The position numbers and the translations under genes were made by a program. This document shows, piece by piece, positions 2 through 3,591 of a stretch of DNA of 64,000 nucleotides. Every line of letters begins with the position of its first letter. Position 1 is the stretch's first letter. The notes beneath the pieces are model-generated. The model was given only the letters and a program-made list of their open reading frames with translations, was not told where the DNA came from and ran no database searches. The DNA comes from an uncultured Candidatus Saccharibacteria bacterium (GTDB lineage: Bacteria; Patescibacteriota; Minisyncoccia; Minisyncoccales; CAZKCU01). The stretch lies in NCBI GenBank assembly GCA_964551595.1, contig CAZKCU010000002.1:3081-67080 (forward strand). The letters are read 5' to 3'.

Positions 2-1060
2 TTTCCAATTTTTAAAACTAAAATCGAGGGCGTAAATCAAAAGTTTCAGCTCGCCGATCCTCAGGAGCGGCAGAGATATTTTGAGCTGAAAGCAGGACTG
101 GAGATTGAAAAGCTAAAGGAGTATCTCAAAGATAACACATTTATTGCTTATCTTTTGGGCAAGAAGAATTCGGGTAAAGGTACTTATTCAAAAATGTTTG
201 GAGAAGCTGTCGGGAAAGAAAAAGTTGGCCATTTTTCCATTGGCGATATAGTTAGAGACGTTGATAAAGAAATCAGAGACAAAAAAAAGAAAAAAGATTT
301 AATTACTTTTTTGGAAAAAAACTATCGGGGCTGGCTTTCTCTTAAAGAAATAAGCCAGACCTTAGAAAAGAGAAGCACCAAAACTCTTTTGCCAACCGAT
401 TTAATTTTGGCCCTTGTAAAACGAGAAATTGCCAAAAGAGAGAAAAAAGCCATTTTTATTGACGGCTTTCCCAGAGATTTGGGACAAATTTTTTATTCTT
501 TATTTTTTAGAGATTTAATTGGTTATCGTGACGACCCTGATATTTTTGTTTTGATTGATGTTCCTGAAGCAGTAATTGATGAAAGAATCAAGTGGAGAAG
601 AGTTTGTCCCCTTTGCCAGACCTCAAGGAATTTAAAACTACTCCCGACCTCAAAGATTGGATATGATAAAGCAAAAAAAGAATTTTATTTAATTTGTGAT
701 AACCCCGACTGCCGAGGAGTTAAGATGGCTTCAAAAGAAGGAGATGAATTTGGCATAGCGCCAATAAGAGAAAGATTAAAAAAAGACTCTGAGTTAATTC
801 AGCGGGCTCTTTCTCTTTACGGTATTCCTAAAGTTTTTCTCCGCAATTCTGTTCCAGTAGTAAAAGCAAAAGAATTCGTCGATGATTATGAGATTACCCC
901 CGAATATCATTATGAATGGGATGAGAAAGAAGAAAAAGTAAAAATAGAAGAGTTATCCTGGATTATGAAAGATGATGAGGGTAATGCGTCTTATAGTTTA
1001 TTAGCCCCGCCAGTGGTGGTCTCTTTAATTTCCCAGATAGTTGAAGTATTGAATCTTTAG
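2..1060 (+). CDS. adenylate-kinase-family protein, atypical paralog (5' end outside window)
   Basis: The frame is open from base 2, with no stop upstream of the TTG at 155, so the gene is 5'-truncated by the window. It has a P-loop GKKNSGKGT, an FIDGFPRD motif and a Cys4 lid (CPLCQ...CDNPDC) as in Zn-lid adenylate kinases. A canonical adk sits separately at 18535. Confidence 0.6.
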   Translation, partial: FPIFKTKIEGVNQKFQLADPQERQRYFELKAGLEIEKLKEYLKDNTFIAYLLGKKNSGKGTYSKMFGEAVGKEKVGHFSIGDIVRDVDKEIRDKKKKKDLITFLEKNYRGWLSLKEISQTLEKRSTKTLLPTDLILALVKREIAKREKKAIFIDGFPRDLGQIFYSLFFRDLIGYRDDPDIFVLIDVPEAVIDERIKWRRVCPLCQTSRNLKLLPTSKIGYDKAKKEFYLICDNPDCRGVKMASKEGDEFGIAPIRERLKKDSELIQRALSLYGIPKVFLRNSVPVVKAKEFVDDYEITPEYHYEWDEKEEKVKIEELSWIMKDDEGNASYSLLAPPVVVSLISQIVEVLNL

Positions 1061-1064
1061 GGGC

Positions 1065-1094
1065 TTGACTTGGTTCTGTTCCAAGCGCTATAAT
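1065..1094 (+). promoter_or_regulatory. sigma70-type promoter TTGACT-18nt-TATAAT
   Basis: TTGACT at 1065-1070 and TATAAT at 1089-1094. It points into a region with no credible ORF. Confidence 0.6.
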
Positions 1095-1100
1095 AAAAAT

Positions 1101-1272
1101 AGCCCTGCCAAAACTTCTAGTTATATCTGGTACAAACATTTTTTTTGGGAGTCTGATATGATTATGGCCTCTGGGCTATATCTTGGACACCCACCTGGAT
1201 TTTTTTCCGGATACGATTCTCTAGAAGTGGAAACAGGGCTCCAAAAATCTCGGAAATATCCGAGTTTTTTTG
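1101..1272 (+). ncRNA. candidate small ncRNA with 6S-RNA-like rod/bubble architecture
   Basis: Bounded by the promoter at 1065-1094 and an intrinsic terminator at 1249-1271. Closing helices are 1101-1107/1234-1240 and 1113-1120/1221-1228. A U-rich bubble of about 16x16 nt (1131-1146 vs 1191-1206) is followed by an apical stem at 1147-1192. Confidence 0.5.
1249..1272. terminator. intrinsic terminator hairpin, possibly bidirectional
   Basis: CTCGGA-AATA-TCCGAG followed by T7 on the + strand. An A-run precedes it, so the reverse strand reads hairpin plus ATTTTT just downstream of tRNA-Pro. Confidence 0.65.
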
Positions 1273-3427: not shown

Positions 3428-3591
3428 CACTCGGCAAGTCTGCTTCGGGAAGCCCGCCGTCGGCCTTTAGTAGTAATACAAAATTTGTTTCGGCCGCGGC
3501 TTTTCTCGCCGAGCCTTAAAATCTTTAACTAAAAGGCAAATTAATTCTCTGGCTCGGCTGCGAAGTGCTTTCCTTAGTAGTCTTGCCTCGC
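3428..3591. repeat. palindromic GC-rich intergenic element, family C copy 2
   Basis: CTCGGCAAG...CTTGCCTCGC termini. The inner TTCTCGCCGAGCC / GGCTCGGCTGCGAAGTG stem is shared with 1594-1751. It widens the normally short rpsG-fusA gap to 212 nt. Confidence 0.7.

Follow-up and report, generated by a model that had tools for sequence, protein, structure and literature searches.

The RNA encoded at positions 1101-1271 on the + strand of the window (the whole 64,000-nucleotide stretch of DNA analysed here) is very probably the 6S RNA (ssrS homolog) of a Candidatus Nealsonbacteria/Minisyncoccales-type Patescibacteria (CPR) bacterium. The RNA is too diverged for the standard Rfam threshold to recognise. 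The 6S interpretation, which had been proposed by an earlier sequence-only reading of the same DNA, is supported by a match to the Rfam 6S family (RF00013), by covariation, and by the absence of a competing family. The elements of the locus are as follows, where pRNA denotes product RNA.

1065-1070, + strand: -35 box TTGACT of the promoter TTGACT-18-TATAAT (11/12 matches to the sigma-70-type consensus, 18-nt spacer)
1089-1094, + strand: -10 box TATAAT; the predicted transcription start, at ~1101 and seven bases past this box, is the first base of the closing stem
1101-1271, + strand: predicted 6S-like transcript of ~171 nt, composed of a 140-nt core (1101-1240) plus the terminator hairpin
1101-1107, + strand: 5' strand of closing stem P1, pairing with 1234-1240; 95.6% paired, 6 of 7 pairs compensatory
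1114-1120, + strand: 5' strand of closing stem P2, pairing with 1221-1227; 95.5% paired, 7 of 7 pairs compensatory
1125-1130, + strand: 5' strand of P3, pairing with 1207-1212; 86.8% paired, 6 of 6 pairs compensatory; predicted template of the pRNA body
1131-1146, + strand: 5' strand of the central bubble, UACAAACAUUUUUUUU, with the invariant A1134 and, at C1133, the predicted pRNA start
1147-1149, + strand: GGG of P4, pairing with CCC 1190-1192; near-invariant (64-65 of 65 sequences) and equal to the GGG/CCC of the Rfam 6S consensus
1151-1188, + strand: apical domain, with P5 (1151-1156/1183-1188), P6 (1160,1163-1169/1174-1180,1182) and a loop (1170-1173)
1190-1192, + strand: CCC of P4, pairing with G1147-G1149
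1193-1206, + strand: 3' strand of the central bubble, ACCUGGAUUUUUUU, with an invariant A at 1193 (65/65) and a near-invariant C at 1194 (64/65)
1195-1210, + strand: alternative hairpin 1195-1199/1206-1210, the putative release switch, expected to form when P3 opens
1207-1212, + strand: 3' strand of P3, partner of 1125-1130
1221-1227, + strand: 3' strand of P2, partner of 1114-1120
1234-1240, + strand: 3' strand of P1, partner of 1101-1107
1249-1271, + strand: intrinsic terminator, CTCGGA-AATA-TCCGAG (1249-1264) followed by T7 (1265-1271); scored on both strands

The minimum free energy (MFE) of 1096-1272 (+) is -60.6 kcal/mol, compared with -37.9 ± 3.7 kcal/mol for dinucleotide shuffles (z = -6.1), and none of 200 shuffles folded as well. 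The structure is a rod consisting of the closing stem (P1-P3), a central bubble of 16x14 nt, and an apical stem (P4-P6). P3 adjoins the bubble at its closing-stem end and corresponds to the helix adjoining the bubble in Rfam 6S. The 6S-like layout of closing stem, bubble and apical stem, which the sequence-only reading had drawn by eye, is borne out by this fold together with the covariation described below. Among its helices, 1101-1107/1234-1240 was confirmed and covaries. The second, drawn as 1113-1120/1221-1228, was confirmed for 1114-1120/1221-1227, also with covariation, and the third, placed at about 1121-1130/1207-1216, holds for 1125-1130/1207-1212 and does not extend outward to 1121/1216. 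The bubble had been estimated as about 16x16 nt. Its 5' strand is indeed 1131-1146 (16 nt), and its 3' strand is 1193-1206 (14 nt) rather than 1191-1206, beginning at 1193 because C1190-C1192 pair with G1147-G1149. The apical hairpin extends over 1147-1192 as claimed.

Homologs were collected with the diverged adenylate-kinase-like (AK-like) protein encoded 5' of the RNA as the query, which gave 91 loci (11 from species-representative genomes and 80 from metagenomes). The nearest relative (L001) is the complete Candidatus Nealsonbacteria genome CP179888.1 (639,534 bp), with 95% amino-acid identity in the AK-like protein; the remaining relatives bear the labels Minisyncoccales, Jorgensenbacteria or Patescibacteria. 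In about 80 of the 91 loci, from relatives with 53-95% amino-acid identity, the AK-like gene is followed by a homolog of the RNA, and nearly all loci with sufficient flanking sequence have one 3' of that gene. A MAFFT alignment (A2) in which two deep subclades were mixed gave a poor RNAalifold structure and served only as an nhmmer profile for locating homologs; this profile found 75 matches to the RNA in the 91 AK-linked loci. Covariance model R1 found 78 matches on the + strand, 73 of them with E < 1e-9, and model R2, built from 73 family members, added the distant loci L006, L007, L008 and L010. In the window, the model match (130.3 bits, + strand, 1097-1243) is the sole one within 64 kb. 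The L010 contig (JAUYPG010000032.1) is titled 'Nanoarchaeota archaeon' and carries the AK-like gene, the 6S-like RNA and, further downstream, a tRNA-synthetase-like gene, all as in the Patescibacteria locus L006; its 'Nanoarchaeota' bin label is probably wrong.

The rod-like fold is kept by selection. When the 38-pair structure was imposed on 22 homologs that MAFFT had aligned without structural information (A3), 92.9% of the cells paired, compared with 37-55% when the 3' partners were slid by 1-3 columns; 18 of the 38 pairs had changed on both sides, and the covariation score was 0.403 as opposed to 0.07-0.13 in the slid versions. For the 65 distinct model-aligned sequences (A5), which were selected with a stricter cut-off to keep out weaker antisense matches, 92.7% of the cells were paired (41-54% in slid controls), compensatory double changes occurred in 35 of 38 pairs, and the covariation score was 0.561 against ~0.1; none of 500 shuffles reached any of these measures. 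The three pairs without strong covariation are those of the near-invariant GGG/CCC (1147-1149/1190-1192). The apical helices show 82.9% pairing and 6 of 6 compensatory pairs in P5, and 96.4% pairing and 9 of 9 compensatory pairs in P6. The alignment check suggested by the sequence-only reading thus found the paired regions conserved in syntenic relatives, at about 80 loci and with abundant compensatory changes.

The size of the bubble is constant among the 65 distinct sequences, with modes of 16 nt (range 13-17) for the 5' strand and 14 nt (12-15) for the 3' strand. The column of A1134 is A in all 65, and that of C1133 is a pyrimidine in 63. Partial pairing of the U-rich bubble strands and the ACAAA/UUUU stretches is conceivable and would make the bubble smaller; covariation is uninformative on this pairing because the ACAAA/UUUU and U-rich positions are nearly constant.

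The reverse complement folds nearly as stably (z = -6.0), and the folding energy consequently gives no strand. The covariance model settles the strand of the RNA as +. R1 scores on the + strand are 45.6-152 bits for the closer relatives and 24-33 bits for three distant ones, and the antisense match is lower at every locus, with a maximum of 52.5 bits.

RF00013 (6S/SsrS) was the top non-tRNA match in the window segment. The match lies exactly on the segment claimed by the sequence-only reading (1099-1243), covers the full model (1-187), and has 22.0 bits and E = 0.035 (901 nt searched), under the gathering score of 46.4 bits. With gathering cut-offs, Rfam reported only tRNAs in the window and in the 11 genome loci. 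Further loci were scanned at an E-value threshold and none attains the RF00013 gathering score, the best having 38.5 bits. The expectation that 6S RNAs of reduced candidate phyla may be hard to detect by similarity is borne out by the lack of a gathering-level match in the window and the relatives scanned. At the syntenic RNA, RF00013 scored 27.3 bits in L006, 24.1 in L009 and 22.8 in L007. The highest score was that of L064 (38.5 bits, model 1-187), with E-values of 2.9e-4 in a 65-kb search with 4227 families and 1.1e-6 in a local search, and L064 belongs to the family of the window RNA, scoring 107 bits with model R1. Five independent, divergent loci share this match to RF00013 at the syntenic site. 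Through the intermediate L064, we regard the evidence for homology to 6S as significant, at a score still below that of curated membership.

In the RF00013 alignments of the window and L064, P1 corresponds to the outer closing stem, P3 to the bubble-bordering stem, and P4/P5 to the apical-side stem. Both bubble strands align to the bubble of RF00013, and the helices correspond one-to-one. The best-conserved letters of RF00013, GGGag and CACCCACCUggaA, find their counterparts in GGGAG and CACCCACCUGGA, and the pattern GGGAG...CACCCACCUGG, in which CACCCACCUGG is 1188-1198, fits the 6S consensus. The bubble-flanking GGG/CCC (64-65 of 65) and the CCCACCU of the 3' bubble strand are also features that align to this consensus. 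In the reciprocal test, model R2 with filters off gave no match to E. coli ssrS (L092, NC_000913.3) at E ≤ 10. A strong match to a different RNA family, which would have spoken against 6S, was not found in Rfam; no other family competes for the RNA site. Weak matches to the rimP leader, mir-4766 and SpF41 were discarded since they overlap terminators or tRNAs or are at chance level.

A conserved structured small RNA with another role independent of RNA polymerase, for instance as a scaffold or sponge for proteins, could resemble 6S in the generic manner of a long imperfect hairpin with an internal loop. In favour of such an RNA are the scores under the gathering threshold, a family model that misses E. 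coli ssrS, and the absence of the GG hallmark of pRNAs (see below). The tight association with the AK-like gene, seen at about 80 of 91 loci, could also mean that the function is tied to that gene. We consider this improbable, because the RF00013 match is full length and helix for helix, includes the signature GGGAG...CACCCACCUGGA, and recurs at the syntenic site in five divergent loci with E-values down to 2.9e-4 and 1.1e-6, at a site without a competing Rfam family. A diverged 6S RNA is the preferred reading, and the organisation of the locus bears on it as well.

The AK-like ORF ends with a stop codon at 1060, immediately upstream of the promoter. It occupies 2-1060 (+) in the window and 2995-4059 in L001, and encodes a 354-aa protein with a zinc-finger lid. 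The AK-like protein scores 59.7 bits against a cut-off of 168 and is far under every NCBIfam adenylate kinase cut-off. The linkage of the AK-like gene and the 6S-like RNA persists across protein identities from 53% to 95%. On the other side, a convergent tRNA-Pro(GGG) lies at 1278-1352 on the opposite strand, antisense to the RNA, and is accompanied on the same convergent side by a weak L28 (rpmB) match at 1355-1576.

The promoter TTGACT-18-TATAAT and the CTCGGA-AATA-TCCGAG hairpin with U7, both pointed out by the sequence-only reading, were found at 1065-1094 (11/12 matches) and 1249-1271, respectively. Of 74 distinct homologous loci, 54 have a promoter with at least 9/12 matches in a constant register; its -10 box ends 2 nt before the covariance-model match and 6 nt before the first closing-stem pair. 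The best upstream promoter-like pair has 11 or 12 of 12 matches in 47 of the 74 loci. Across the 74 loci, the promoters ~40 nt upstream of the RNA are unusually near the consensus (TTGACA/TAtAAT), and the spacer is almost always 18 nt, as compared with the textbook value of 17. The terminator hairpin has 6 bp, including 4 G-C pairs, and a 4-nt loop before the U7. Its distance to the 3' end of the convergent tRNA-Pro(GGG) is 6 nt, and it scores as a terminator on the minus strand too; it thus probably ends both units, the RNA gene and the convergent tRNA-Pro/rpmB unit. The 3' end of the RNA takes two forms among the homologs: a separate hairpin with a U-run (39 of 74 loci by a crude script), and a U-run right behind the closing stem (L004, L005, L011 and L042, among others). 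Judged from its sequence, the RNA appears to be its own transcription unit, with a housekeeping-sigma promoter, a predicted start and a terminator.

The position of the RNA directly 3' of the AK-like gene on the same strand would also suit a cis element, either a 3'-UTR stabiliser or attenuator of that gene or the leader of a downstream gene. This is very unlikely given the consensus promoter that separates the RNA from the AK-like stop codon, with a constant register in 54 of 74 loci, and the terminator in which the RNA ends. The downstream neighbour is convergent in the window and varies by locus (antisense tRNA, tRNA-synthetase-like ORF, ABC-type ATPase-like ORF, and others), so the RNA is not the leader of a downstream gene, and in L025, L027 and L029 an extra ORF is interposed that sets the AK-like gene ~1.1 kb apart from the RNA. 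The leader or 3'-UTR reading was rejected on account of the RNA's own promoter and the varying downstream genes.

The sole ORF across the segment (1065-1292, 75 aa) had been dismissed as not credible by the sequence-only reading, and rightly so, as its TTG start lies on the -35 box and it overruns the antisense tRNA-Pro. That this ORF is encoded, or that the segment is a mobile inverted-repeat element of the kind that the same genome does carry, is extremely improbable, since all three + frames contain stops in 50 of the 65 distinct homologs, the substitutions are compensatory in the stems, and there is one copy in the window, at a conserved syntenic position. The protein-coding reading was accordingly discarded, and the segment is taken as the 6S-like RNA in what follows.

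Other structured elements were observed near this locus and elsewhere in these genomes. A subclade (L004, L016, L019, L025/27/29, L034, L036, L083 and L085) has an extension of ~85 nt with two hairpins between the promoter and the closing stem, which is absent from the window. Its motif is GGCgGUGCCC...UGGAAgUUA...UAAUUUCUAAC, and L034 and L085 have a copy of the closing stem's 5' strand (GGCCCG / GGCCCUG) on either side of the extension, as would result from an insertion. The extension was located at the following positions.

L034, 2650-2740: two-hairpin extension
L085, 2630-2720: two-hairpin extension
L016, 2600-2660: two-hairpin extension
L019, 2540-2610: two-hairpin extension
L004, 4135-4220: two-hairpin extension
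L083, 1195-1250: two-hairpin extension
L036, 2660-2745: two-hairpin extension
L025, 3690-3765: two-hairpin extension

A separate element lies at 1577-1763 of the window, between rpmB and an M50-peptidase-like gene, and is an insertion of ~187 nt relative to L001, flanked by TGCCAT direct repeats. It folds with z of about -8 on either strand. A second copy of this repeat is located at 3431-3568 (+) in the rpsG-fusA spacer and is absent from L001, in which the spacer is 27 nt. Copies elsewhere stand in differing contexts, as listed below.

L019, 1220-1418: repeat family copy
L025, 1275-1471: repeat family copy (also in L027 and L029)
L030, 3175-3369: repeat family copy
L053, 3206-3398: repeat family copy
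L069, 26-205: repeat family copy
L078, 367-535: repeat family copy
L077, 1342-1461: repeat family copy

The members of this family are ~140-190 nt long, and an alignment of five copies (78% identity) indicated a long outer stem and two inner hairpins with 7 compensatory pairs. The family has no Rfam match. Forty-eight viral contigs have a 15-mer in common with the repeat, and none of them contains the element itself. The repeat resembles either a non-autonomous element with recent mobility or a new structured RNA. Other long inverted-repeat insertions near the AK-like/6S locus are unrelated in sequence (L077, 2560-2670; L017, 1590-1700; L081, 2365-2470; L091, 1040-1290), and intergenic structured insertions seem to be common in these genomes.

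The central bubble of characterised 6S RNAs holds the initiation site of pRNAs, and pRNAs of sufficient length rearrange the 6S RNA and release the polymerase, with a hairpin forming opposite the 5' bulge (PMC8414754). The adenine adjoining the pRNA start is conserved, and GG at pRNA position 4/5 or 5/6 is reported as shared from E. coli to Aquifex (PMC8414754). By analogy with the E. coli and B. subtilis 6S RNAs, the duplex-flanked bubble of the window RNA would mimic an open promoter and fill the active-site cleft of the RNA polymerase holoenzyme that carries the housekeeping sigma factor. The polymerase would be sequestered in this way when nucleotides or growth are limiting. Upon a rise in NTPs, it may use the 5' bubble strand as template, starting at C1133, just 5' of A1134, and reading into P3. 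The predicted pRNA, 5'-GUACCAGAUAUAAC, is complementary to 1133-1120 and would begin with 5'-GUACCAGAUAU... opposite C1133; it would be purine-initiated because this template base is a pyrimidine. The start site is assigned by analogy (PMC8414754), 63 of 65 sequences having a pyrimidine before the invariant A1134. That the window RNA binds RNA polymerase and templates pRNAs is likewise inferred from the characterised 6S RNAs.

In the proposed release step, the pRNA-6S duplex would open P3, the freed 3' strand (1206-1210) would pair with 1195-1199, and the polymerase would dissociate. This alternative hairpin is the MFE solution when 1120-1133 is blocked in silico. Across the family it is 81.5% paired, compared with 27-66% in slid versions, with modest covariation, and this pairing is at most suggestive of the release switch. 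The predicted pRNA has no GG at positions 4/5 or 5/6, because the template at these positions is GG and gives CC; the dinucleotide CC is absent from the 5' bubble strand and from the 5' strands of P2 and P3.

Few global regulators act on RNA polymerase directly, and 6S RNA is among them; host-dependent Patescibacteria probably retain polymerase sequestration as a growth-state control. A missing Rfam match in small genomes has been taken as the loss of noncoding RNAs (PMC4779614). The present family is relevant to that argument, in that a relative with a ~640-kb genome and dozens of Patescibacteria carry a 6S-like gene missed by the curated threshold. Annotation pipelines based on the gathering score leave this gene blank, and the alignment and covariance model obtained here could seed a better 6S model for the candidate phyla radiation. 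It is speculative to tie the AK-like gene and the RNA functionally to nucleotide status. A wider proposal, which we hold to be rather doubtful, is that the RNA represents a streamlined 6S variant of ultra-small symbionts that departs somewhat from the textbook mechanism, with a pRNA lacking GG, no processing, an AK-like linkage that couples polymerase sequestration to adenylate/NTP status in importers of host nucleotides, and a 5' domain gained in one subclade.

The window RNA shares with 6S/SsrS (E. coli SsrS, B. subtilis 6S-1 and 6S-2) a stand-alone gene, a sigma-70-type promoter, the rod fold and a bubble of 16x14 nt. It further resembles them in the G-C pairs that flank the bubble, the A adjoining a pyrimidine in the 5' bubble strand, the GGGAG...CACCCACCUGGA core, and a 3' bubble strand predicted to form a hairpin once the adjoining helix opens. 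In contrast to 6S/SsrS, the family scores 22-38.5 bits against the gathering score of 46.4, and its predicted pRNA has no GG at positions 4-6. The family core of 134-156 nt is shorter than the 187 positions of RF00013, parts of the closing and apical stems being missing. The primary transcript also seems to need no 5' processing, unlike 6S/SsrS, as its predicted start is at the stem. The neighbour here is the AK-like gene, while E. coli 6S adjoins zapA/fau and the 6S of lactic acid bacteria adjoins rarA/uspA (PMC8414754).

Two other 6S-like types differ from the window RNA. No match to RF01685 was found up to E = 10 in the window segment or the relatives scanned. RF01685 is 6S-Flavo, a lineage-specific 6S-like family that has its own model because RF00013 misses it; unlike 6S-Flavo, the window family matches RF00013 itself. 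Ms1 is longer than the window RNA. Ms1 of Actinobacteria is a 6S-like structured RNA that binds core RNA polymerase and not the holoenzyme (PMC9130861, PMC11077062). The Rfam searches gave no match to any Ms1-type family. A parallel by description is the 6S RNA of Aquifex aeolicus, which Willkomm and colleagues reportedly described in 2005 as compact and found by structure rather than by sequence. Like it, the window RNA is short and divergent, comes from a deep-branching small-genome lineage, and is recognisable mainly by its architecture. In view of the homology to RF00013, and of a literature search that returned no paper linking 6S RNA with CPR, Patescibacteria or Saccharibacteria, the RNA is best regarded as a compact, diverged 6S RNA rather than as a new type of system.
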